In this document: positions 5,839 to 58,908 of the stretch, one piece after another | How the letters are laid out: every line of letters starts with the position of its first letter | How positions within the stretch are numbered: position 1 is the first letter of the stretch | NCBI GenBank assembly: GCA_964469905.1 | Contig: CAYXZW010000005.1 | Location: forward strand, 36,330 to 100,329 | Length of the DNA: 64,000 nucleotides | Reading direction: 5' to 3' | DNA from: an uncultured Smithella sp. | GTDB lineage: Bacteria > Desulfobacterota > Syntrophia > Syntrophales > Smithellaceae | Notes under the pieces: model-generated | The model's database searches: none | What the model was told of the DNA's origin: nothing | What the model saw: the letters and a program-made list of their open reading frames with translations, nothing else | Made by a program: the position numbers and the translations under genes

Positions 5839-6572
5839 TGAGCCATCATATTGTTGATTTTAAAAATGTGTTTTTCCGTTATCCCGACAAAACAGAGGCG
5901 CTCCGGGATATTTCCTTCCGCATCACTCATGGCGAAGCTGTCGGCATCATCGGGGCAAACGGTTCCGGTAAGTCTACTCTGCTTTTGCACATGAACGGTC
6001 ACCTGCTCCCCGCATCAGGAACGGTGACAATCGGCGATCTTCATCTGAACCGCAAAACCCGCCAGGAAATCCGGAAAAAGGTGGGCATCGTCTTTCAGAA
6101 TCCCGACGATCAACTATTTATGCCTACCGTTTACGATGATGTTGCCTTCGGTCCACTCAACCTCGGCATGGATGAAGATGTTGTTCGGAAGCGGGTTCAC
6201 AGCGCGTTGAGCCTGGTAAACAGTTTTAATCTGCGCGACAAACCGCCGCATCATCTTTCCTGCGGTCAGAAAAGCGCTGTGGCAATTGCTGCGGTCATGG
6301 CCATGGAACCTGACATCCTGGCAATGGATGAACCGGCAGCCAACCTTGATCCAAAATCAAGGCGCTTGCTCATCAACCTGCTGAAGACATTTACTCACTC
6401 CAAGATTATCGCCTCCCACGACCTTGACCTGATTCTGGATGTCTGTTCGCGCTGCATCGTAATCAGAGAAGGCACCGTGGCGGCGGATGGACCGGCAAGA
6501 GAAATACTCTCGGACAGAAAACTGCTCGAAGAAAACAATTTGGAGTTGCCTTTGTCACTCCAGAGAGGCTGA
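5838..6572 (+). CDS. nikO: ECF transporter ATPase NikO/CbiO
   Basis: 244 aa with Walker A GANGSGKST, signature LSCGQKSAV and Walker B ILAMDEP. Its start overlaps the nikQ stop. Confidence 0.9.
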   Translation: MSHHIVDFKNVFFRYPDKTEALRDISFRITHGEAVGIIGANGSGKSTLLLHMNGHLLPASGTVTIGDLHLNRKTRQEIRKKVGIVFQNPDDQLFMPTVYDDVAFGPLNLGMDEDVVRKRVHSALSLVNSFNLRDKPPHHLSCGQKSAVAIAAVMAMEPDILAMDEPAANLDPKSRRLLINLLKTFTHSKIIASHDLDLILDVCSRCIVIREGTVAADGPAREILSDRKLLEENNLELPLSLQRG

Positions 6573-6580
6573 TCAGGCTT

Positions 6581-7105
6581 TTAAAACACTGCACCTTCAC
6601 TTAACATCCGGCACAAAAACAGGGGTTTGGTCTTTTGATCTGATTGTCCTCCTCCCTTTTTGTTCTTGCCCTTCTTAGGAGATTCCGGCGGTAAAATGAA
6701 GTAGATTCCGACCAGGAGAAATGCATCAAAAACAATTGGTTTCCAAAAATTTTTTTTCTGCTCTTCTTCTTTCAGGGGAGATAAAATATTTTTAGCATAT
6801 CCATCTTCTGATTCCATCGTTATCAAATAATCGGCAACAACGTTAAAAAAAGCACTTTCCACTTTTAAGATCTTTTTATTATTAATGAGATCTATATTGC
6901 CTGTATTTTTAGAAATGTTTGATAAAAAATGATCTTTAAACCAGGAATGGGTGGAGTGAGATAGTTCATAAATTACAAAAGTGGCAATCTTTATTTTTAA
7001 ATTTGTTTGTTCTTCTTCCTCTAATTTCATCTTGGCAATTAATGATTTTCTTGCGGCTTCGTAATAATCCTTAAGATTTTTCACAGCATCCTTTTTGTCG
7101 TTCAT
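6581..7105 (-). CDS. Hypothetical protein with one C-terminal TM helix; AT-rich orphan
   Basis: 174 aa with no recognisable motif and the TM segment WKPIVFDAFLLVGIYFILP. It is clearly AT-richer than its neighbours by eye and is convergent with nikO (8-nt gap). Confidence 0.45.
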   Translation of the reverse strand: MNDKKDAVKNLKDYYEAARKSLIAKMKLEEEEQTNLKIKIATFVIYELSHSTHSWFKDHFLSNISKNTGNIDLINNKKILKVESAFFNVVADYLITMESEDGYAKNILSPLKEEEQKKNFWKPIVFDAFLLVGIYFILPPESPKKGKNKKGGGQSDQKTKPLFLCRMLSEGAVF

Positions 7106-7707: not shown

Positions 7708-9666
7708 ATGAAAACATTAGAGCATCTGCTGGCGCCAATTCGGATAAGAAATCTGGAAATTGCCAACCGGCTGGTTATGCCGGCGATGGGAACGATGCTC
7801 GGCAATGATGACAGCACCGTCAGCGAGGCGAACCTTGCCTATATTGACCGCCGGGCTGCCAGCGGCGCCGGTCTGATCATCAACGAGATCACGGAAGTTC
7901 ATCCCCTGGGCGCGGCCTCGCCGCGCTGCCTGGGAGTATGGGACGATAAGTTTATTCCGGGACTGACCAAATTTGCCGCTGTTGTGCATGCCCGGGGAAG
8001 CAAGATCGCCATGCAATTGCACCATACGGGCCGCGAAAACTTCCTGCTGCAGCGAAAAAAGAAGGCTGTCGGACCATCGGCGATACCCAGCCATATCTTC
8101 GGCTTCCTGGGTGCGCCGCGCGAGATGACTCTTGAAGATATCGAAGAAACCATCGCCGCTTTCGGCAGTGCGGCAGTGCGCGCCCGCAATGCCGGGTTTG
8201 ACGCCGTAGAACTCCACGGCGCCCACGGCTATCTGCTCATGCAGTTTCTGGCGGCTCATTCCAATCAGCGCACCGACAAATACGGTGGCGATTTCCGCGG
8301 ACGATCCCGCTTCATGCTCGATTGCCTGAAGGAGGTGCGCAAGCAGGTTGGACAGGATTACCCTATATCTATCAGGCTTTCCGGTGAGGAGTGCATTAAA
8401 GACGGTTATACCATCTCCGACATACAGACCATTATCCCCGATCTTGTGGAGGCCGGTGCGGACATCATCAATGTGTCCTTCGGCACTCATGGCAATCCGG
8501 AAGTGAACATCGATACCCCTAATCCCAGCGCTCCTGTGGAATACGGCCAGGGTTTCAAGGCGCACCTGGCCCGGAAAATAAAAGAAGTAACGGCCGTGCC
8601 CGTCATCTCCGTAGGACGCTATAATGATCCCTATTTGATGGATGAAGTAATCGCCAGGGGTGATGCCGATTTCATTGCTGTGGCCCGGCAGCATCTGGCC
8701 GACCCCGATTTTCTTCTGCACGCCCGCGCCGGACATCCCGAAAACACACTGGAATGTCTGGCCTGCAATCAGGGGTGTATTGAACGTCTGTCCCTGGAGG
8801 CGCTGCCGATTCGTTGCGCCATCAACCCGCAGACAGGTCAAGAACTGCTCTACCCGTCAGCCCCGGCGGCAACAAGCCGCAATGTCTGGGTTGTCGGTGG
8901 CGGACCTGCCGGTCTTACAGCGGCATTTGAGGCCGCACGCCTTGGACATCACGTAACCCTCTTCGAACAGGAAAAAGAAACAGGCGGTAATGTCCGTTAT
9001 GCCGCGAAGGCGCCGCACAAAGAAGTCTACAGTAAATATATCCGGACTCTCACGGAAAGTTGTCGCCGGAAAAACGTGAAAATAAAGGAAAACACCACAG
9101 TAACCGAAGACATGATCGAGAAAGATAAACCGGATGTCGTCATTCTCGCTACCGGAGCCGGCAAATCATCCTGCACCGCGGAGGGCATTAACTCAACGAT
9201 AGTTTGTGACGCCTGGCAAATTCTGGATGGCGAAGTTACACCCCAAAATAATGCAGTCATCATTGGCGGCGGCCTTGTGGGAATGGAAACGGCTGATTAC
9301 CTCTGCGAAAAGGGCATCAAAGATATTACCCTGGTGGAGATGCTGCCCACTTCACCCGTTCTGGCCTGGGCTGCCCACGGCTTCATGCTGCATCAGCGTC
9401 TGCGGGCAGCCGGAATCAAACTGCGGTTCGGCGCAACCGTAAAACTAATTACAGAAAGATCAGTGGTAGTAACGCAGAACGGTGAGGAGCAGAAAATCGA
9501 ACCAGTCGGCCAGGTTATTGTTGCCATCGGCGTGACACCCAGAAACGCACTCAAAGACCTGCTGGTAAAAAAAGGCATTCGCCATTTTATCGTCGGTGAT
9601 GCTGCAGCTCCCCGGCGCATTATCGAAGCGACAACAGAAGGAGCAAAAGCCGCCTGGGAGATTTGA
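7708..9666 (+). CDS. 2,4-dienoyl-CoA reductase-like NADH:flavin oxidoreductase (OYE domain + Fe-S + FAD/NAD(P) domain)
   Basis: 652 aa. It has an OYE-like N-terminal domain, a CLACNQGC cluster motif and a VVGGGPAGL Rossmann motif. A GAGGAG RBS precedes the ATG. Confidence 0.85.
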   Translation: MKTLEHLLAPIRIRNLEIANRLVMPAMGTMLGNDDSTVSEANLAYIDRRAASGAGLIINEITEVHPLGAASPRCLGVWDDKFIPGLTKFAAVVHARGSKIAMQLHHTGRENFLLQRKKKAVGPSAIPSHIFGFLGAPREMTLEDIEETIAAFGSAAVRARNAGFDAVELHGAHGYLLMQFLAAHSNQRTDKYGGDFRGRSRFMLDCLKEVRKQVGQDYPISIRLSGEECIKDGYTISDIQTIIPDLVEAGADIINVSFGTHGNPEVNIDTPNPSAPVEYGQGFKAHLARKIKEVTAVPVISVGRYNDPYLMDEVIARGDADFIAVARQHLADPDFLLHARAGHPENTLECLACNQGCIERLSLEALPIRCAINPQTGQELLYPSAPAATSRNVWVVGGGPAGLTAAFEAARLGHHVTLFEQEKETGGNVRYAAKAPHKEVYSKYIRTLTESCRRKNVKIKENTTVTEDMIEKDKPDVVILATGAGKSSCTAEGINSTIVCDAWQILDGEVTPQNNAVIIGGGLVGMETADYLCEKGIKDITLVEMLPTSPVLAWAAHGFMLHQRLRAAGIKLRFGATVKLITERSVVVTQNGEEQKIEPVGQVIVAIGVTPRNALKDLLVKKGIRHFIVGDAAAPRRIIEATTEGAKAAWEI

Positions 9667-9896
9667 TGCCCAAACGGGCGAACATCCTGTTGTTTTGCGT
9701 TGCAATTATTTATTCGGGTCTTGCATCCCTGATTCTATGTCCGGGAAATAAAACGGATCTCTTTTAAGCAAAACGGGATTGTTTTTTGCCTCATTGTATC
9801 AGCCCAATCACCTGATAAATTTATGAACTCCAACTATTGACAACAAGTTATTTTCTGGATAATACCCAATCATTAATCATCGAAAGGAGACCATAA

Positions 9897-10256
9897 ATGA
9901 AAAAAACATTGACGAAAATTTTTATTATTGCCGCCACTCTAATTTTTGTAAGCACAATTGGATTTGCCGCAGACACAAAAGATGCAGCTAAAAATGTTCC
10001 GCAGGCCAAATCAGCAGTTGAAAAACAGGCGCCCGCCAAACCGGAGGCCAAGAAAGAACTTGTTGACCTGAACACAGCCACAATAGCCCAACTAAAAGCC
10101 ATTCCCGGCATCGGCGACACTTATGCCCAGAAGATTATTGATGGACGACCTTATGCCAAGAAAGATCAAATGAAAACAAAGAAAATTCTGCCTGATGCTG
10201 TCTATGACAAAATCAAAGATATGATTATTGCCAAGCAGGAACCCAAGAAAAAATAA
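9897..10256 (+). CDS. ComEA-like secreted helix-hairpin-helix DNA-binding protein
   Basis: 119 aa with a signal peptide, then LNTATIAQLKAIPGIGDTYAQKIIDGRPY (HhH motif). Confidence 0.75.
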   Translation: MKKTLTKIFIIAATLIFVSTIGFAADTKDAAKNVPQAKSAVEKQAPAKPEAKKELVDLNTATIAQLKAIPGIGDTYAQKIIDGRPYAKKDQMKTKKILPDAVYDKIKDMIIAKQEPKKK

Positions 10257-10275
10257 TATTACCGCAGATCAGCCA

Positions 10276-11055: not shown

Positions 11056-11859
11056 GTGAGGTGCAATTTGACAACATTTCAGGCGATAGTATTAGGATTG
11101 GTTCAAGGTTTGGGAGAGTTTCTGCCCATATCCAGTTCGGCACATTTGATATTGGTCCCCTGGCTTTTCCAATGGGAAGATCCGGGACTTACTTTTGACA
11201 TCGCCCTGCATTTCGGCACATTGATCGCCGTAGCAATATATTTCTGGCGAGACTGGCTGCGACTATTATCGAAGGGATTCACCGATACAAAAAGCACCGA
11301 CGGGCGTTTGTTCTGGTATCTCGTGTTGGCCACCATTCCCGGGGCGGCAATCGGCCTGGCGCTGGAGAAACATGCCGAAACAACTTTCCGCGATCCTCTG
11401 CTTATCGCCGTCATGCTGATTTTACTGGGTATTATTTTGTATTGGGCTGATCGGAAAAGTGCCAAGAATATTGATGTAAAAAATATAACACTGAAAACAA
11501 GTTTTTTAATTGGCCTGTCACAGGCGCTGGCGATAATTCCCGGAGTTTCGCGCTCCGGAATTACAATGACCACGGGCTTGTTGCTGGGCTTGACCCGCGA
11601 AGGCGCCGCACGCTTTTCGTTCTTGCTTTCGGCGCCCATTATTTTCGGCGCTGCGGCCGTTAAGCTGCCTTACCTTATTGCCCATCCCTCTCAGATCACA
11701 GGCAACTTCGTTATCGGTATGGTGGTTTCTTTTGTTACGGGAATAGCAAGCATAGGATTTCTCCTGCGCTATGTGCAGACCAAAACTTTTCTGCCCTTTG
11801 CCTGGTATAGATTTATCCTGGGCGCTGTGGTTATTGTCGCAGCCTTATTTTATCCTTAA
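11056..11859 (+). CDS. uppP: Undecaprenyl-diphosphate phosphatase
   Basis: 267 aa with GLGEFLPISSSAHL and PGVSRSG motifs. The track start is GTG 11056. TTG 11068 (MTTFQAIVLG...) sits better behind the AAGGTGAGG RBS. Confidence 0.9.
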   Translation: MRCNLTTFQAIVLGLVQGLGEFLPISSSAHLILVPWLFQWEDPGLTFDIALHFGTLIAVAIYFWRDWLRLLSKGFTDTKSTDGRLFWYLVLATIPGAAIGLALEKHAETTFRDPLLIAVMLILLGIILYWADRKSAKNIDVKNITLKTSFLIGLSQALAIIPGVSRSGITMTTGLLLGLTREGAARFSFLLSAPIIFGAAAVKLPYLIAHPSQITGNFVIGMVVSFVTGIASIGFLLRYVQTKTFLPFAWYRFILGAVVIVAALFYP

Positions 11860-11967
11860 GCATACCACCTTTCAATCCCGGCAATAATTTCTATTCTTTG
11901 ATATTTCTTGACAGAGCCAAATGTTTAGAGTTAGTCATTTTAACTTTAAAAACGGGCAGTCACGATT

Positions 11968-12579
11968 ATGCCCATAAGGGATAAGTCTATAAATATGAAA
12001 ACAGGCGAGAAAAAAATAGCAACTCCGGCAAAAAAAACGGCCAGCCGAAACAAGCAGCAGAAGCAAGGCTTAGTGATCGTTATCACCGGAAACGGCAAGG
12101 GCAAAACGACCTCTGCTTTCGGTCAGGCTCTGCGCGCCATCGGCCAGGGATATAAGGTTTTGGTCGTGCAGTTTATGAAAGGGAGAAAATACGGTGAATT
12201 TAAAGCCGCAAAAGATCATCTTCCTAATTTAACTATTCGGTTGTCCGGTTTAGACAGTTTTGTTATGCGCGACAACCCCGCACCCATTGATATTGAACTG
12301 GCACAAAAAGGGTTTGCCTATGCCCGGAAGGCCATTGAATCAGGCAAATATGACATGATTATTCTCGATGAAATCAATGTAGCGCTGGATTTTAAACTTC
12401 TTGATTTAAAAGAAATTATCGAAGTAATTAAGAATAAACCCGCCGGCGTTGATCTGATCTTGACCGGCCGTTATGCTCCACAGCAAATAATTAAACTTGC
12501 CGATACCGTCAGCGAAATAAAAGAAATTAAACATCATTACTCGGCAGGAATCAAAGACCGCGCCGGCATTGAATACTAG
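11968..12579 (+). CDS. cobO: Cob(I)yrinic acid a,c-diamide (corrinoid) adenosyltransferase
   Basis: 203 aa with P-loop GNGKGKTTSAFG, then VVQFMKG...DEI, typical of CobO/BtuR. The start may instead be ATG 11995. Confidence 0.85.
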   Translation: MPIRDKSINMKTGEKKIATPAKKTASRNKQQKQGLVIVITGNGKGKTTSAFGQALRAIGQGYKVLVVQFMKGRKYGEFKAAKDHLPNLTIRLSGLDSFVMRDNPAPIDIELAQKGFAYARKAIESGKYDMIILDEINVALDFKLLDLKEIIEVIKNKPAGVDLILTGRYAPQQIIKLADTVSEIKEIKHHYSAGIKDRAGIEY

Positions 12580-12582
12580 CGT

Positions 12583-12760
12583 AGCGCATCGATGAAACCA
12601 TGTCAGAACAACAGAGTGTGTCACCATAGAGCCCTTCGCTGCACTCAAGGGCAGGCTTCGCGAAGGGTCCGGGGTCACAAGATTCTTCGTCTCAAGGATC
12701 AGAGATTCTTCGGCTGCCGCATCCGAATGAAATTGCGACACAGCCGCCACTTGCCAACCA
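12583..12760. repeat. REP-like composite intergenic sequence (uncertain family)
   Basis: It contains the hairpin GCCCTTCG...CGAAGGGT and the direct repeat AGATTCTTCG x2. It shares the 11-mer AGCGTAGCGCA with the block at 25440-25600. The ORFs here have no coding character. Confidence 0.3.
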
Positions 12761-12922
12761 TTCCATTTTGCTTGCTAAATATTGATTATGGAAACAACTT
12801 TTTTGTTGACAATCAGAGTAACTTGGAGCATAAAAATCATCATTAATTAATTTTTTTCAGTAATTTATTGCCACTCGATGATAAATTTATTTTTACTATT
12901 TACTTTCCCGGCGGAGGCTGCG

Positions 12923-46305: not shown

Positions 46306-46899
46306 TCATTTAAACAGCTTCTGATACTCTCCGTAGCCTTTCTTTTCCAGGTCTTCTTTGGGAATAAATCGCAGGGCGGCGGAATTCATGCAATAACGCA
46401 ATCCTGTCGGTGCCGGCCCATCGGGGAAAACATGACCAAGGTGAGAACCGGCATACCTGCTTTTCACTTCCAGGTCGTGGGGAGATTTCACGACATTACC
46501 CGGTTCGATGGGCCGCGTAAAGCTGGGCCAGCCTGTTCCGGAATCGTATTTGTCTTTAGAACTGAAAAGCGGCTCGCCGGAAACAATATCGACATAAATG
46601 CCATCTCTGTAGTTTTTATCATATTCGTTGGTAAAAGGCGCTTCAGTACCTTCGCGTTGAGTAACTTTGTGCTGCAGCGGAGATAGAATTTTCTGCAAAG
46701 TTACATCGTCCTGCTTTTTAAAGTTTTTCCAGTCACAAGTATTGATTTTCGCGGCTTGAGCATTCGCGGGATTTTCGTTTTTCATATTTACCTCCTTTAT
46801 TTCCTTTATGCTGCTTTTCTCCGGCTGCGCAACCATACCGGAATTCTGGCAAGCCGTAATCATAAATAAAACCATCACACTTATCGGTAATGTTTTCAT
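46306..46899 (-). CDS. msrB: Peptide-methionine (R)-S-oxide reductase, lipoprotein form
   Basis: 197 aa with lipobox LFMITAC, the catalytic region GLRYCMNS and GTGWPSF. Confidence 0.88.
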
Positions 46900-47151: not shown

Positions 47152-47745
47152 TCATTTAAGTTGATCGAGAATGTCACGGAATACTGGAATCGGCTGGGCC
47201 CCGACGATTTTATATTTATTCTCGATGATGAACAGGGGCACGCCGGTTAAACCAATCAACTGCCCCTCTTGTCTTGCTTCCTTTAAACGGGATTCATAAC
47301 GACCTGCATTCACGGCACTAAGCGTCTCTTTTTCATCCAGACCGCTTTTCCCGGCAACGGCGGCAATAATATCCGGATGACCGATGTCGAGACCCTCCGT
47401 AAAATATGCATAAAAGATGTTCTCATGAAAAGAATTATGCAGTCCCCTATCCCGGGCATATTCACTAGCCATCAGAGCCAAGCGGGAATTGGAAAGGAGT
47501 TTGTGGTTGCCGAAAGTTACACCAACTTCTTTACCGCGGAAGCGCAGCTGGTCATAAAGCGAAGAGAGGTCGTAACCCTTGAATCTCTCGGAGAGCAATA
47601 TTCCGGCAGGCGGCGTTTCCGGATGAAGCTCGTAGCTCAGCCATTGATCATCAATGGCGTATTCTTGTTTCAATTGATCGACAATGCCCTTGCCTATATA
47701 ACAGAAAGGTCAGATATAGTCGGAAAATATCCTGAAGTTAACCAT
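47152..47745 (-). CDS. DsbA/FrnE-like thiol oxidoreductase with in-frame TGA (probable selenocysteine) in a U-P-F-C redox motif
   Basis: The track ORF (47152-47673) starts at TTG. The same frame extends upstream to ATG 47745 behind AGAGGA and reads MVNFRIFSDYI-TGA(47712-47710)-PFCYIGKGIVDQ-LKQEYAIDDQW... The TGA is the only stop and replaces the first Cys of CxxC. Confidence 0.7.
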
Positions 47746-47938
47746 AATTTTATTCCTCTGTTGGATGGTATTTAATCTCTCTGTCTATCAACTATAAAGA
47801 AGAAGTTCTTATTTTTTATTGTCAGATTCCAATCTGTGGCTTGTTCTGCAAAGAACTGGAACAAACATACCCCTGATTGCCTTGCGCTTCAAATGTTTTT
47901 TTGGTGAATGCATAGATACGTAAAAGTTCTTTTACAAA

Positions 47939-48420
47939 TTATTTCTGTTTGGGCAGGTGATTTCCCGGTACTGAAGAAATCAGATCCTCCCCGAATATCC
48001 AGAAATATATTGTCCCGATAAGTCCGCAAGCGAAGGCCGTAAAGAAGTTTACCTGCGGCGACATTTGCCAGAGGAAGGCTCCGCCAAAGGCTCCGCCAAA
48101 AGCACCGCCTGCAAGTAAGGAAAAATTATGACAATGGCGTAACCAAAAAGGGCAATTAAGTTAAAAACCAGCAGGGCTTTTTTATAGCCCAGACGGTCGC
48201 TCAAATAACCGCCGGGGAAGGAATAGAGGGCGGAAAGAAGATTGGTCATGCCGCCCAGCAGGCCGATCGTCAAAGCACCTCCACCCAGAGCCATGATATA
48301 AACAGGCAAAAAACGCTCGGTCATTTTCTCCCCCAGGCCGACCAGGACGACCATGGCGAGCAAGGCCGCCATGCTTTTTCTCAATCCGAAAAATTCAGAG
48401 ATTTTCTTTCTTAAGCGCAT
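47939..48420 (-). pseudogene. MFS transporter remnant: N-terminal ~105 aa joined out of frame to the C-terminal ~55 aa
   Basis: The N-terminal part (48420-48049 ORF) is MRLRKKISEFFG...GGYLSDRLGYKKALL. Another frame continues GAFGGAFGGAFLWQMSPQVNFFTAFACGLIGTIYFWIFGEDLISSVPGNHLPKQK* ending at 47939. About 250 aa of a normal MFS are missing. Confidence 0.7.
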
Positions 48421-49843: not shown

Positions 49844-50082
49844 TTTTTGTCATTCCCTGAGAGGCTCTAAAGTCGGTTTTGCTTAGAAGTAATAGCCTAC
49901 TATTAATGCGATGTGATAGTCGTTTTTTTATAAATAGCATAAATAACATAAAAAAACATCGCCGTGCTTACAAGTATTCCTGATTGTAATAATATCAGCT
50001 GTAATATTACTTTAATGAATTTGCTTTAAGTTGTGGCAATTGTTAGAACAGCTCGAATTATTTCCATGAAGGAGTGTGTTTT

Positions 50083-51162
50083 ATGAATAATATTCTTGCA
50101 ACCCGCAAAGGTATTATTATTGTCGGCGCGGTGATTGGTATCGGTGCGGCGCTGTTGCAGTATCTCGGCAATCCGCCCAATATGGGCATTTGCGTGGCCT
50201 GCTTCGAACGTGATATGGCCGGTGGACTGGGACTACATCGCGCGGATGTCGTGCAGTACCTGCGACCGGAAATCATGGGATTCGTTCTTGGTTCTTTTGC
50301 GGCGTCCCTTTTTGCCGGAGAATACAAGCCCAGGGGCGGCTCTTCTCCGCTGATCCGGTTTTTCCTCGGCATTTTTGCGATGCTGGGTGCGCTGGTATTT
50401 CTGGGCTGCCCCTGGCGGTCGCTTTTAAGACTGGCCGGTGGCGACGGCAACGCCATCCTGGGTATCGCGGGACTGATTTTCGGCATTTTTATCGGTGTCC
50501 TGTTTTTGAAAAACGGCTATAGTCTGGGACGTTCCTATGCGCAAAGAAAGGCCAGCGGCTGGGTTTTCCCGGCATTGATGGTTGGTCTTTTTCTGCTTCT
50601 GGTGTTTAAGGTCTCTTTTGCACCGGGCGGACCGATTTTCTTTAGCATAAAGGGCCCCGGCTCACAGCATGCGCCCATTGTGATCAGTATCGTCGCCGGT
50701 TTGATCATCGGCGCCATCGCGCAGCGCAGCCGTTTTTGCACAATGGGAGCATTTCGGGATGTTATGCTGATTAAGGATTTTCATCTGATCAGCGGAGTGG
50801 CCGCCCTTCTGGTTTTTGCGTTTGCGACGAATTTAATCCTGGGCCAGTTCCATCCCGGCTTTGAAGGGCAGCCCATCGCCCATACCGATCATGTCTGGAA
50901 TTTCCTGGGCATGGCTCTTTCCGGACTGGCGTTTGTGATGGCCGGGGGTTGTCCCGGACGTCAACTCTTTTTATCCGGCGAAGGCGACATGGACGCGGCG
51001 ATTTTTGCAACGGGTATGATTGTGGGCGCGGGCATCGCCCATAACTTTGCGATGGCCTCGTCACCCAAGGGTATTGCCGCCTTTGGTCCCGCCGCCGTCG
51101 TCGTCGGGTTTTTATTCTGTTTGGTTATAGGTTTAACACAACGTGATAAAATATCCGCTTGA
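50083..51162 (+). CDS. yedE: YedE/FdhT-family membrane protein (putative selenium/sulfur-compound transporter)
   Basis: The track start is GTG 50074, but ATG 50083 follows AAGGAG. It is polytopic with GICVACFERD and FCTMGAFRD motifs, the paired Cys-loops of the YedE/YeeE family. Confidence 0.75.
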   Translation: MNNILATRKGIIIVGAVIGIGAALLQYLGNPPNMGICVACFERDMAGGLGLHRADVVQYLRPEIMGFVLGSFAASLFAGEYKPRGGSSPLIRFFLGIFAMLGALVFLGCPWRSLLRLAGGDGNAILGIAGLIFGIFIGVLFLKNGYSLGRSYAQRKASGWVFPALMVGLFLLLVFKVSFAPGGPIFFSIKGPGSQHAPIVISIVAGLIIGAIAQRSRFCTMGAFRDVMLIKDFHLISGVAALLVFAFATNLILGQFHPGFEGQPIAHTDHVWNFLGMALSGLAFVMAGGCPGRQLFLSGEGDMDAAIFATGMIVGAGIAHNFAMASSPKGIAAFGPAAVVVGFLFCLVIGLTQRDKISA

Positions 51163-51183
51163 TTTTCGGGAAGGAGAAAAGGT

Positions 51184-51399
51184 ATGAGCACAAAACAAAT
51201 TGACGCAAGAGGGCTTTCTTGTCCACAGCCTGTCGTTTTGGTTGACCGGGCCATTGCCGGCGGCAACAACAATCTGGAAATTTTGGTGGATAACGAGGTC
51301 GCGCGGGAAAACGTCACCCGTCTGATCAGCCGGCGCGGCATGAAAGCGGATATAAGCCAGAAAGGCCAGGATATTATCATACGGGCGGTGAAATCATAA
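51184..51399 (+). CDS. TusA/SirA-like sulfurtransferase (YedF-like)
   Basis: 71 aa with the DARGLSCPQP (CPxP) active-site motif. Confidence 0.8.
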   Translation: MSTKQIDARGLSCPQPVVLVDRAIAGGNNNLEILVDNEVARENVTRLISRRGMKADISQKGQDIIIRAVKS

Positions 51400-51426
51400 A
51401 AGACCGCTGTTGGATGGGAAGTTTCC

Positions 51427-52590
51427 GTGAAAACAATTTATCTCGATAATGCCGCAACGTCGTTTCCGAAACCGGAAGCGATGTTTGCGGCAATGATTCA
51501 TTATCAGCAGAACATCGGCGGCTCGCCCGGACGTTCCGGCCACGGCCTTTCCATCGATGCGGGCCGGATTGTTTTTGAAACACGGGAAACGCTGGCGCGT
51601 CTTTTTAGCATAGACGATCCTCTGCGAATCGTCTTTACAAAAAACTCAACGGAAGCACTCAATATTGCCCTGCTCGGCCTGCTGAAAAAAAATGATCATG
51701 TCATTACCACCGGCATGGAACATAATTCCGTTATGCGGCCACTGCGTTATCTCCAGTCACAAGGCGTCGAATTGTCGGTGATTCCCTGCTCTGCGCAAGG
51801 CGAGCTTGACCCGGAGAACATCAAGAAGGCTTTCCAAAAACATACAAAAATGGTTGTCCTGACCCACGCATCCAATGTAACGGGAACCATCATGCCTGTA
51901 TACGAAATAGGGAAAATGACCAGTGCCAGGGGCGATGTTGTGCTGTGTGTGGATGCCGCCCAGACCGCAGGAGCCCTGCCGATTGATGTGGGCAAAATGG
52001 CCATTGACCTTCTAGCATTCACTGGCCACAAATCTCTTTATGGTCCTCAGGGCACCGGCGGGCTTTATATTCGCGAAGGCCTCGACCGTTGTATTGCACC
52101 TTTGATGCGAGGAGGAACAGGCAGCCGCTCGGAGTTTGAAGCGCAGCCGGATTTCATGCCGGACAAGTATGAAAGTGGCACTCCCAATGCCATTGGCCTT
52201 GCAGGACTTGGCGCAGGCGCCTCGTTCATCCTGGAGCAGACCCTGGAAGCAATCCGGGCCAAAGAATTGCAACTGACAGCCCGCTTTCTTGATTTACTGA
52301 ACGAAGATAAAAATCATGTGACCGTTTACGGCAGCGGCGATGCCGCAAAAAAAATCGCCGTGGTTTCCTTTAATTTAAAGAACATCACGCCGTCCGATGC
52401 CGCCTTATACTTTGAAGAAAAATGGGGCATCATGTGCAGGCCAGGACTGCATTGCGCGCCTGCGGCCCATAAAACACTAGGAACATTTTCACAGGGTACG
52501 ATACGCTTCAGCTTCGGCTTTTTTAATAACGAAGAGGATATTGACCATGCCGCCGGTGCAGTGCGAGATTTGATCAAAAAAGGAAATTAA
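51427..52590 (+). CDS. Class V aminotransferase: cysteine desulfurase / selenocysteine lyase family
   Basis: 387 aa starting at GTG, with YLDNAATS, the FTGHKSLYGP PLP-lysine region and a CRPGLHCA active-site loop. Confidence 0.85.
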   Translation: MKTIYLDNAATSFPKPEAMFAAMIHYQQNIGGSPGRSGHGLSIDAGRIVFETRETLARLFSIDDPLRIVFTKNSTEALNIALLGLLKKNDHVITTGMEHNSVMRPLRYLQSQGVELSVIPCSAQGELDPENIKKAFQKHTKMVVLTHASNVTGTIMPVYEIGKMTSARGDVVLCVDAAQTAGALPIDVGKMAIDLLAFTGHKSLYGPQGTGGLYIREGLDRCIAPLMRGGTGSRSEFEAQPDFMPDKYESGTPNAIGLAGLGAGASFILEQTLEAIRAKELQLTARFLDLLNEDKNHVTVYGSGDAAKKIAVVSFNLKNITPSDAALYFEEKWGIMCRPGLHCAPAAHKTLGTFSQGTIRFSFGFFNNEEDIDHAAGAVRDLIKKGN

Positions 52591-52598
52591 ATCCAGCA

Positions 52599-52826
52599 AT
52601 GACACAAAAAGAATCGACCAGCGTTGTCCTCTTTGAATCCATCAGCCATGCGTTACGCGCCGAAAAATTGATTAAAGCCGCGAATATTTCCTGCAAACTG
52701 ATTCCCGTGCCGCGCCATCTCAGTTCCGATTGCGGCGTCTGCCTGCGTATCAGCACCGACACAAAAGAGCATGTTGAAAATATATTACAGGAGAAGCTGG
52801 ATTTCTTTGAGATCAAACTGCTCTGA
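52599..52826 (+). CDS. DUF3343-like small protein (putative Se/S carrier)
   Basis: 75 aa with VVLFESISHALRAEKLIK...LIPVPRHLSSDCGVCLRI, matching the DUF3343 pattern. Confidence 0.7.
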   Translation: MTQKESTSVVLFESISHALRAEKLIKAANISCKLIPVPRHLSSDCGVCLRISTDTKEHVENILQEKLDFFEIKLL

Positions 52827-52859: not shown

Positions 52860-54161
52860 TTAAAAGTAATAGCCAACCCGTAGTTCAATACGGTAGTCAT
52901 TTTGCTTCTCGCCAAAATCAGAGTTTTTTGTGCCGGAGATAATTCCTGTACGGAGACGGAATTCCCAATTGGTGATACCAGTATAAAGAAGTTCCGGCGT
53001 CAATGACCAACTCTGATCATCCGTGTTCATCATCCAGGTTAGCGATGGCGTGAAATAAAGGATATCGAAGGGCTCTTTCTGGCTGCAACGAACATACAGA
53101 TAGTTTCCCATAGCGCTGGAACGACCATAACCTCCCTCCGCCATTTGCTGGGCGTTGCCAAGGGCGGCAGCGTTGCCGGTTGTCTGATAGGTGTTGTACC
53201 CCCGTGTGATATAAGTGTAATAGTTTTTCATATCATCGCCGCTGAAACCCATGCCGTTGTGGTAGTACTCAATGATAGTGGTAAGGTCAAATGTGGTCAG
53301 GTGCCGGATGCCGATGACATAACTTAAGGCGTCTCCTTCCACCTGATAACGATTGCCGTTTACATCCAGAACGTTTTTCTGAAAATTCTGAACATAGGCC
53401 AGTTCGCCGTGCACTTCAAAGTTGGTCGTGATGTTCCGGGAAAAGTCAATGCCGTAGCGGTCGGTCCTGCTGCCCCCGGTCATGAACATCAAATCAATAT
53501 CCGTGTCATACAAAAGAAAATAGAACCGGCCCGCAACGTTGAGTTTGTAATTATTGCCAAATGTGTCGTTCACATGGTCGTAAACGGGAAATAGAACGGG
53601 GGTAAAGGAAAAAGTTTTCAATGGCCCCTCGAAGCTTTTGATATAGTCGGCCGTAGCCAGGACGTAGCCTTCCATGGCTGTTTCCGGATCGTCCGGATCT
53701 TTCGGCCTGTCCACGAAGGCCACTGGATTCCAGGCGTAGCCCTTCCCCCACTTCATGGTCTTTTTCCCAATATCAAATTTCAGATTGGACGATGGTTTCA
53801 CAGAGCCGTATGCTTCGTAAAATGTTGTTCTTTCCGATTCTCCTGAATAAGAAGATTTTAAATCCGTGTTCGTCTTCGCATAGATTCGGAAGATATTTTT
53901 TTCGAAGCTTCCCTCCAGTTGGATTCTACCGTTTGCTTCTAATAGATTCTGCCCTCGGGGATCGCTGAAAAAGCGCTGTTTGTAAAATGCACTATCGCGA
54001 TCAAGACCGAAGAGAATGGGCTTAAACTCGACGTAACCCCCGATATGATTCGATTTCTTCTCAGTCTCTGCAGGATCAAAGGAATATGATTCCTCGGCGC
54101 CCACAACTGCCGGGATCAGCCAAAACATAAAATACAGGAAGATAAGCAATAGCCTTTTCAT
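52860..54161 (-). CDS. Outer-membrane beta-barrel protein of unknown function
   Basis: 433 aa with a signal peptide, aromatic-rich alternating strands and a C-terminal ...RVGYYF. Confidence 0.6.
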   Translation of the reverse strand: MKRLLLIFLYFMFWLIPAVVGAEESYSFDPAETEKKSNHIGGYVEFKPILFGLDRDSAFYKQRFFSDPRGQNLLEANGRIQLEGSFEKNIFRIYAKTNTDLKSSYSGESERTTFYEAYGSVKPSSNLKFDIGKKTMKWGKGYAWNPVAFVDRPKDPDDPETAMEGYVLATADYIKSFEGPLKTFSFTPVLFPVYDHVNDTFGNNYKLNVAGRFYFLLYDTDIDLMFMTGGSRTDRYGIDFSRNITTNFEVHGELAYVQNFQKNVLDVNGNRYQVEGDALSYVIGIRHLTTFDLTTIIEYYHNGMGFSGDDMKNYYTYITRGYNTYQTTGNAAALGNAQQMAEGGYGRSSAMGNYLYVRCSQKEPFDILYFTPSLTWMMNTDDQSWSLTPELLYTGITNWEFRLRTGIISGTKNSDFGEKQNDYRIELRVGYYF

Positions 54162-57867: not shown

Positions 57868-58908
57868 TTATTTTTTAACCTTCACCATCTGCGCCTTTAA
57901 CTTTATTAACCCCTCCCATATTTCGTCGTCCCCGACATACTTTTTAATGTCAGTGGCGGAATACCTGATTACACAGGTAGGCGTGGCATCAACCTTGTGC
58001 TCTTTGATAACAGCGCTCAAAAGCGGGAAAATTGATTTCTCGTCTCTGACTTTCCATGAAATTCTTTGCTCTTTCAGATAACTGACAAGGGATTCCTCCG
58101 TCTGAATACGCTTGATCTGCGCCGCGTCAAAAAGTATTTTTCGTACATGAAGCACATTGTTGACGCCGGGATCGGCATTTACAGCATATAGGTAATACTT
58201 GGCGTAAATCGGTGTGGCTTTGGAAAAAGGCACATCAACGAATGTAATTTTCACTTGACCTTTAACTAGTAATTCTTTCAACAATGGTTCTGCTTTTATA
58301 TCTATCCTGCGGCACGGCGGACAGAAATAATCGGCAAACATGATAACCTCATAAGGTCCTTTGCCCAGTGACGGAATTCCCCGGATAGAATCCTGACCGT
58401 AGGCGGGAGTGACCGAACCGGTAAATGTAAATACGATTGTCAAATATCCCAGTAAGCTGAAAAACAACAACGGCAATTTATTTAATTTAAACATCGGAAA
58501 ACTTACCTCCCCTAAAAAATATAGCCACATCCGGTGGCGATTTTCGCGCCAGGCGGATGGAACTTCGTAATTGATAATAAATGATGCGATGAGTATCACA
58601 GAAAACGCCAGACAGAAAGGACAATAGACATTGTTTTGCACCTGAAAGGCGTATAAATGGACTTCCACGCCGAGGCCAGCAGCCAGCAACGCCCGCACAA
58701 AAGGCGTTTGTTTAAATACCGCAAAAACAATAATGGCGATCATATAGGCGATGCCGACCCACTTGAGATCAATGGCAAAAATATCTCCTTTGAGATAACT
58801 GCATGTCGTATCGCAGTAATCGTAATAAGCCATGATCCCGATGCCGATAAATGCCAGCACAATGGTGGCGATGTTGCGATACTCTTTAATGCCTTCCGTT
58901 AATTTCAT
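57868..58908 (-). CDS. VKOR-like membrane domain fused to a DsbA/thioredoxin-like periplasmic domain
   Basis: 346 aa. It has loop cysteines YCDTTC, an in-membrane CPFC, then a soluble domain with FADYFCPPCRR. Confidence 0.6.
   Translation of the reverse strand: MKLTEGIKEYRNIATIVLAFIGIGIMAYYDYCDTTCSYLKGDIFAIDLKWVGIAYMIAIIVFAVFKQTPFVRALLAAGLGVEVHLYAFQVQNNVYCPFCLAFSVILIASFIINYEVPSAWRENRHRMWLYFLGEVSFPMFKLNKLPLLFFSLLGYLTIVFTFTGSVTPAYGQDSIRGIPSLGKGPYEVIMFADYFCPPCRRIDIKAEPLLKELLVKGQVKITFVDVPFSKATPIYAKYYLYAVNADPGVNNVLHVRKILFDAAQIKRIQTEESLVSYLKEQRISWKVRDEKSIFPLLSAVIKEHKVDATPTCVIRYSATDIKKYVGDDEIWEGLIKLKAQMVKVKK

Follow-up and report, generated by a model that had tools for sequence, protein, structure and literature searches.

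We present evidence that the minus strand of a 64-kb stretch of Smithella DNA (64,000 nucleotides, hereafter the window) very probably carries the gene of a cytoplasmic thiol-disulfide oxidoreductase from the FrnE branch of the DsbA proteins (COG2761), in which an in-frame UGA would be recoded as selenocysteine (Sec) by way of a hairpin at 47697-47677. The mechanical ORF list for this locus offers only a 173-residue ORF starting at a TTG codon (47152..47673). The initial annotation had held this ORF to be the mis-called, truncated part of a selenoprotein gene, a proposal that is borne out by the domain match, by orthologues with Cys or TGA at the position in question, by coding conservation upstream of the TGA, by the SECIS hairpin and by the literature. 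The features discussed below are collected in Table 1.

Table 1. Features of the DsbA-like locus, of the selenium genes and of related loci; positions are those of the window unless a relative's locus (L) is named
Feature	Position	Strand	Basis
Predicted complete DsbA/FrnE-like selenoprotein CDS	47152..47745	-	single frame with one TGA, PF01323, FrnE 5CNW, dN/dS
UGA as predicted selenocysteine codon, first position of U-P-F-C	47710..47712	-	column conservation, FrnE CPWC alignment, codon-position pattern
Shine-Dalgarno-like AGAGGA, 8 nt 5' of ATG 47745	47754..47759	-	sequence; comparable boxes in orthologues
Putative SECIS hairpin	47677..47697	-	RNAalifold consensus, covariation, synonymous-site constraint, published bSECIS criteria
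Selenium-handling cluster	50074-52826	+	YedE, YedF-like, TIGR01977 protein, PF11823 Se/S carrier
UGA-containing selD beside yedE	L072 about 9224-10270; L036 about 11752-12798; also L061, L066, L071, L074, L075	- (L072, L036)	TGA at Cys17 column + downstream hairpin
U73 tRNA(UCA) beside yedE/yedF/Se-carrier cluster	L041 6455-6550; L057 9791-9885; L065 7214-7305; L068 11099-11192; L069 11085-11180		

Reading frame and protein family

The frame runs on the minus strand from the ATG (47745-47743) through 10 sense codons, the TGA (47712-47710) and another 185 sense codons to a stop at 47154-47152, i.e. 198 codons for 197 residues plus the stop, with the TGA as the one internal stop. The product begins MVNFRIFSDYI, continues past the TGA with PFCYIGKGIVDQLK... 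and has U as residue 12 and its sole Cys as residue 15. The initial annotation had read this stretch without error, from the AGAGGA box, the 8-nt spacer and the ATG to the coordinates of the TGA, including the TGA as the sole stop within the extension and a full product of 197 aa. Purine-rich boxes like AGAGGA were seen at the matching place in most orthologues. A promoter and terminator scan returned sites no more numerous than in shuffled sequence, and a scan of the 64-kb window for other TGA-interrupted genes yielded none that was convincing.

With U replaced by C, the product matched the Pfam DSBA family (PF01323) over residues 6-193 of 197 (E 2.4e-29, 102.9 bits vs. a cut-off of 25.6), the match spanning the U column and the active site, and the assignment to the DsbA/FrnE-like oxidoreductases is upheld by this full-domain match. 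By sequence, the nearest solved structure is the Deinococcus radiodurans FrnE (5CNW/5CP1; E 2.4e-20, residues 4-188 aligned), in which VDIWSDIA-C-PWCYIGK aligns with FRIFSDYI-U-PFCYIGK of the window, placing U on the first Cys of CPWC and ahead of Y-I-G-K, just as had been proposed. The sequence and the FrnE alignment indicate that strand beta-1 stands at the very start of the window protein, with no signal peptide ahead of it. Relatives bear the JGI name "predicted DsbA family dithiol-disulfide isomerase". For a Cys orthologue (P0002), an AlphaFold2 model built on a shallow alignment was discarded, since its mean pLDDT was 52.7 and the first 60 residues scored under 50.

Conservation of the TGA codon and selection on the gene

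Orthologues were drawn from 33 species-representative genomes of Smithella, Smithellaceae and Syntrophaceae. The U column held TGA in 31 of the 33 loci and TGC in the other two (L002 and L033), and it was flanked by M-I-N-F-K-I-F-S-D-Y-I before and P-F-C-Y-I-G-K-G after. Across 34 sequences, variability at the three codon positions of codons 2-11, ahead of the TGA, was 0.026/0.021/0.206, a pattern from which we conclude that the N-terminal extension is translated in frame with the remainder of the gene; the 25 nt 5' of the ATG were ~42% variable in every phase (conservation ~58%). With dN/dS values of 0.13-0.16 between the window and its orthologues (0.16 at dS 0.40 for the closest relative), the gene is under purifying selection (dN/dS ~0.15). 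TGA also terminates 17 of the 50 long ORFs in the window and hence has not been reassigned genome-wide. Two of the loci deserve separate mention: in the TGA-form orthologue L027 (about 6001-6624), 105 additional nt (35 residues) sit in frame in the region of the last beta-strand, with ...IIENKY before and KIVGAQ... after them, and the Cys form L033 has a +1 frameshift near codon 122, which is either an assembly indel or a real disruption.

The TGA form extends well outside the Smithellaceae. DNA was also retrieved for 80 divergent relatives (35-60% identity), with 78 loci assessable, and the U column held TGA in 51 and Cys in 26, the TGA forms sharing the motif FSDYI-U-PFCYIGKG. All 51 divergent TGA loci are bacterial, with taxa that include Clostridium, Alicyclobacillus, Ferroacidibacillus, Nitrospirota and Thermodesulfobacteriota as well as Chloroflexota, Dehalogenimonas, Maridesulfovibrio, Actinomycetota and others. 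The recurrence of an in-frame TGA within a conserved flanking peptide is far beyond chance. The 26 divergent Cys loci are mostly from Asgard archaea; all sampled Asgard relatives (L183-L221; MAGs of Promethearchaeota, Thorarchaeota and Hermodarchaeota) have Cys, encoded by TGT or TGC, and a differing downstream peptide, IGYHRIE. In a 2026 review (PMC13188914), Asgard archaea are nonetheless credited with DsbA-like selenoproteins, which may belong to another branch.

These comparisons bear directly on the reading in which the locus is a pseudogene, or in which the TTG at 47673 is the true start and leaves the upstream similarity as a relic. Such a reading would agree with the 172-181-residue products that gene callers and the NCBI annotation report for most relatives. 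However, the 11 upstream codons show a substitution pattern confined to the third position over 34 genomes, the TGA column is maintained from phylum to phylum, homologues having Cys there, and a 173-residue product would be devoid of strand beta-1 and of the entire DSBA redox motif. Orthologues that start downstream of the motif, or a TGA accompanied by other disruptions, had been named beforehand as signs against a selenoprotein; neither was encountered, with the TGA forms being otherwise undisrupted. We give the pseudogene or TTG-start reading next to no credence, as it is already contradicted by the comparative data.

A SECIS hairpin conserved across phyla

The putative SECIS hairpin is the RNAalifold consensus in Smithellaceae as well as in 83 TGA-form sequences from all phyla sampled. 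It comprises a 5' arm at 47696-47690 (UAGGCAA in the window, UCGGCAA in relatives), an apical loop GGGCA at 47689-47685, ~20 nt after the UGA, and a 3' arm at 47684-47678 (UUGUCGA), with an extra outer A-U pair (47697/47677). Counted from the U of the UGA, it corresponds to U17-A35 (47696-47678 in the window), or 13-33 nt downstream if the outer pair is included. Published bSECIS criteria are a loop of 3-9 nt, a stem of 4-16 bp, a G in the first two loop positions and a spacing of 16-37 nt (PMC13188914); the hairpin has the loop GGGCA, a 7-bp stem (with one A.G mismatch in the window) and a spacing of 20 nt.

Support for this structure comes from several features of the alignment: 1) 97.6% of stem cells are paired over the 83 TGA-form sequences; 2) one stem pair shows compensatory change (CG 71, UG 7, UA 2, GC 1 in 83 sequences); 3) none of 500 shuffles matched the observed covariation score, the paired fraction or the number of double changes; 4) the Gly codon of the stem is GGC in 82/83 sequences vs. 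34% among the remaining Gly codons of these genes, and the Val codon of the stem is GTC in 81/83 vs. 20% of Val codons elsewhere, whereas the Gly codon of the loop, unlike the stem codons, varies freely. Among the Smithellaceae alone, where the hairpin is too conserved, no double-sided covariation was detected. Most Cys forms are without the hairpin: the diverse ones make 2-4 of 6 pairs, differ in their Gly codons and vary in the peptide past C-Y-I-G. The two Cys forms of Smithellaceae both retain the hairpin and are closest to each other, which suggests that a single recent Sec-to-Cys change may lie behind them.

Other structures were examined and set aside. The initial annotation had put forward two SECIS candidates, both of which fail, with RNA folding and orthologue comparison pointing instead to the hairpin above. 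The 8-bp stem at 47658-47640 derives from the window-specific peptide IDDQW and pairs in 19% of cells over 34 orthologues. The CCUU/AAGG stem is conserved only by virtue of its Pro-Phe and Lys-Gly codons and loses its pairing at the sole free column in 6 of 34 sequences; its loop, starting ~5 nt past the UGA, is too close, and it is mutually exclusive with the true hairpin. In a lower helix beneath the hairpin, 87% of cells are paired, yet covariation there did not exceed that of shuffles. Rfam, searched at gathering thresholds and in permissive mode, gave nothing relevant.

The weak hairpin allele of the window

In most orthologues, the hairpin together with the lower helix is the free MFE fold (-8 to -14 kcal/mol). 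The window stands apart as the weakest of the 83 TGA-form sequences, with an Ile codon ATA in place of ATC, unique among the 83, that turns the second stem pair (47695/47679) into an A.G mismatch. Its hairpin folds at -4.3 kcal/mol under constraint, while the free MFE of the 48-nt stretch is -5.6 kcal/mol, a competing fold whose loop is without G; both values miss the bSECIS energy threshold of -7.5 kcal/mol, which is a search heuristic and no functional limit.

One might read this as a gene losing its function in the window organism, with Sec insertion made inefficient by the weakened hairpin, translation mostly terminating at the UGA to yield an 11-residue peptide and with the 173-residue TTG product, if made, lacking the active site. 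In keeping with such a loss, only the window among the 83 sequences has a broken pair at stem position 2, its hairpin is 1.3 kcal/mol less stable than the competing fold without the loop G, and the identical allele occurs in three further assemblies (SRR13723392, SRR13723393 and SRR13723396), so that it is real and no sequencing error. A.G mismatches, however, are tolerated in many RNA helices, and here the outer A-U pair and the lower helix offset the mismatch in part. Apart from the TGA the frame is unbroken, dN/dS against the nearest relative is low (see above), and the energy threshold, being heuristic, sets no limit on function. From the intact frame and the low dN/dS, we argue that the window gene probably still works despite its weak hairpin, and we deem loss of function very unlikely.

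Selenium genes and the Sec machinery

The window itself has no tRNA-Sec or any other tRNA and no SelA, SelB or SelD, as judged by a tRNA scan, NCBIfam searches of nine large ORFs and tblastn. Tblastn with E. coli SelA, SelB and SelD was likewise negative for the window and the first 33 loci, tRNA scans of the same sequences showed no tRNA-Sec, and neither SelA, SelB nor a canonical G73 tRNA-Sec was found among the Smithellaceae sequences retrieved, the yedE loci of relatives included. SelD, by comparison with these searches, was found in the yedE loci of many relatives, where it adjoins yedE; one of these loci, L072, is from the MAG CAYMYR01 of a related Smithella, which also carries a TGA-DsbA locus (L025). 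The selD genes of relatives have an in-frame TGA at the column of E. coli Cys17 (GAG-U-ACKIGP), followed by a G+C-rich hairpin whose GGG or GGA apical loop starts 16-18 nt past the UGA and whose geometry resembles that of the DsbA hairpin. SelD itself would appear to be a selenoprotein in the Smithellaceae lineage, and in the related Smithella MAG with the TGA-DsbA gene it seems to supply another UGA-Sec gene of the classical kind, recoded by way of a similar signal. According to Mukai et al. (2017, PMC5389517), selABCD is complete in all selC*-containing genomes, including a Smithella composite genome; the case for Sec machinery in the Smithellaceae lineage rests on selD and on this one literature statement. 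Syntrophus aciditrophicus has 16-19 selenoproteins (PMC1794560, PMC5029168).

The initial annotation had also pointed to a selenium-utilization cluster near the DsbA-like gene. The cluster does exist at about 50074-52826, but it is not near the DsbA gene in any of 33 relatives, and as support for the selenoprotein reading it is weak. It contains a putative selenium transporter of the YedE family (TIGR04112, 503 bits vs. a cut-off of 200), a 71-residue YedF-like protein that matches the N-terminal third of the YedF model only, a TIGR01977 cysteine-desulfurase-family protein that scores below the cut-off for the SclA selenocysteine lyase, and a PF11823 Se/S carrier. In relatives the yedE cluster often includes selD or a tRNA(UCA) with U73; the window cluster has neither.

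The U73 tRNA(UCA) raises the question of what is inserted at the UGA. ARAGORN reported a tRNA-SeC(tca) beside yedE in five loci, and a pattern scan recovered 19 tRNA(UCA) genes with U73 in MAGs of Syntrophales and Smithellaceae (L120-L141), usually beside yedE. These tRNAs have U73, a long variable arm and a 12-bp acceptor + T branch (8/4), vs. 13 bp (8/5) and G73 in the canonical tRNA-Sec, and in these respects they resemble the selC* tRNA-Cys(UCA), which as described in PMC5389517 combines U73, a GCA or UCA anticodon and an 8/4 tRNA-Sec-like cloverleaf. In that study, such tRNAs were described as Cys acceptors, Cys was inserted by opal suppression at a selD UGA in E. coli, and the Smithella composite genome was among the selC* carriers (Mukai et al., PMC5389517). 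Three MAGs (JBDKUG01, PHBN01 and MGQN01) carry both a U73 tRNA(UCA) and the TGA-DsbA gene. On these grounds, the UGA might be decoded wholly or partly as Cys, giving either an ordinary CxxC enzyme or a selenium-dependent mix of Sec and Cys forms. Against this stand several observations: 1) with Cys as the product, TGA would bring no advantage over TGC, yet 31/33 Smithellaceae and 51/78 diverse loci have it; 2) most phyla with the TGA form have not been reported to carry selC*; 3) SerRS can accept U73 with a long variable arm (PMC5389517), and the Cys identity of the lineage tRNAs is putative; 4) the tRNA is absent from the 64-kb window; 5) unlike the selC* system, the loci examined have no selB* and no cysS* or second cysS adjoining the tRNA. 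We consider decoding as Cys to be unlikely. Since 82 of ~110 genomes, from phyla in which selC* is not known, have retained TGA in place of TGC, we argue that Sec is the selected product.

A further and rather improbable scenario is that the UGA of Smithellaceae, in DsbA and selD alike, has a dual meaning, being read as Sec when selenium is available and as Cys by the yedE-linked U73 tRNA(UCA) when it is scarce. Were this so, the oxidoreductase would be kept working under selenium starvation and the organism could restart its own Sec pathway, and the weak hairpin of the window could tilt the Sec/Cys balance. The selC*-like tRNA is the only lead in this analysis to anything less ordinary than a known type of selenoprotein.

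Mis-annotation of the Sec form in public collections

Gene calling obscures this family to a considerable degree. At the U column, the closest 120 protein clusters comprise 92 truncated calls, 17 with Trp and 11 with Cys. Most of the Trp-bearing clusters have run-on C-termini, and Trp at this column is evidently the signature of gene calling with a code that reads TGA as Trp, on short metagenomic contigs. The Trp-form database clusters are P0004, P0009, P0010, P0014-16, P0019-27, P0030 and P0056, along with P0130, P0136, P0148, P0156 and P0161. Among the best 150 matches from 1.84 billion cluster representatives, 48 have CxxC, 5 have WxxC and 97 are without the motif, most of these 97 beginning just past it. 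In public collections, the active site is missing or carries the artefactual Trp in 109 of the closest 120 clusters, and likewise in roughly two thirds of the best 150 50%-identity clusters. With products mis-called in this manner, selenoproteome counts for Smithellaceae and for many other anaerobes are too low. We see the chief value of this work in the repair of such annotation and in the definition of a cross-phylum SECIS, as the hairpin could become a covariance model that flags DsbA-like Sec genes automatically.

Neighboring genes

Downstream of the DsbA-like gene lies msrB (46306-46899, minus strand), separated by a 252-nt spacer with its own RBS. MsrB has an N-terminal extension of ~60 residues that opens with a lipoprotein-type signal (LFMITAC), suggesting that it may be an exported, membrane-anchored methionine sulfoxide reductase. 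An operon or partnership between the two genes was rejected given the lipoprotein signal, the length of the spacer and the fact that only 3 of 33 relatives have them side by side. A 123-residue ORF (48049-48420, minus strand) that lies between chrA and the DsbA-like gene has a match to the MFS_1 profile confined to its middle part (positions 206-291 of 347) and looks like a gene remnant; the fragment is also present in L001 and in Logan contigs. Two other minus-strand ORFs are without family assignment: one of 433 residues (52860-54161) with no Pfam or NCBIfam match and one of 346 residues (57868-58908) with no NCBIfam match.

Proposed mechanism and comparison with known systems

We propose that the gene product is a thioredoxin-fold enzyme with a redox centre U12-P-F-C15, made by recoding the UGA as selenocysteine during translation. 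With its G-rich apical loop ~20 nt from the UGA, the hairpin would bind SelB-GTP-Sec-tRNA(Sec), and this complex, competing with release factor 2, would bring Sec to the ribosome. The enzyme would then cycle between a selenolate/thiol and a selenenylsulfide state, and Sec would be expected to speed thiol-disulfide exchange relative to the Cys form. We infer the identity of the inserted residue (Sec and not Cys), the binding of the hairpin by SelB and the cellular substrate. If correct, this proposal would give a group of syntrophic bacteria a cytoplasmic thiol-disulfide oxidoreductase that depends on Sec.

In relation to D. radiodurans FrnE, the window protein shares a cytoplasmic DsbA-like architecture, the C-P-(F/W)-C-Y-I-G-K context and the TGVP cis-Pro loop region, with Cys in FrnE and, as predicted, Sec in the window protein at the first active-site position. 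The cytoplasmic DsbA fold and the C-P-x-C-Y-I-G-K context are those of the FrnE subfamily (COG2761); the Cys-containing C-terminal tail found in D. radiodurans FrnE is missing. FrnE has 260 residues and extends well past the aligned region, whereas the window protein stops 9 residues beyond it, contains C15 as its sole Cys and has no counterpart of the long C-terminal region of FrnE. The FrnE tail has a CxxxxC motif that would be absent from the window protein, which is FrnE-like in its core only.

With respect to SECIS elements, the hairpin is unrelated in primary sequence to that of the Escherichia coli fdhF type, its binding by SelB is putative, and compared with the bSECIS consensus model the window allele misses the energy criterion.

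The closest parallel is the known family of DsbA-like selenoproteins. That DsbA/FrnE-like proteins are an established selenoprotein family in bacteria, as stated at the outset of this study by the initial annotation, agrees with a record going back to 2005, when a DsbA-like COG2761 UxxC family of nine sequences was first described in the Sargasso Sea study (Zhang et al. 2005, PMC1088965). The family was then found in Anaeromyxobacter, Desulfovibrio and Desulfotomaculum (Zhang et al. 2006, PMC1794560) and later in 41 organisms (Peng et al. 2016, PMC5029168 supplement), and it is listed as "DsbA-like protein form 1, PF01323, UxxC" in the 2026 review (PMC13188914). Syntrophus aciditrophicus, the nearest relative analyzed, is not listed with a DsbA-like selenoprotein (PMC1794560), and our search of the literature found no paper on such a protein specifically in Smithella or Smithellaceae. 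The form 1 family is known from anaerobic Deltaproteobacteria and Firmicutes. The window gene shares with it the same Pfam domain, covering the active site, a UxxC motif with UGA at the first position and Sec predicted there, Cys homologues, conservation on both sides of the UGA and a SECIS just 3' of the UGA inside the CDS, and differs from it in the unique mismatch of the window SECIS. [quoted passage not shown] We regard it as a genuine but ordinary selenoprotein gene, one that leaves the known picture of selenoprotein families unchanged.
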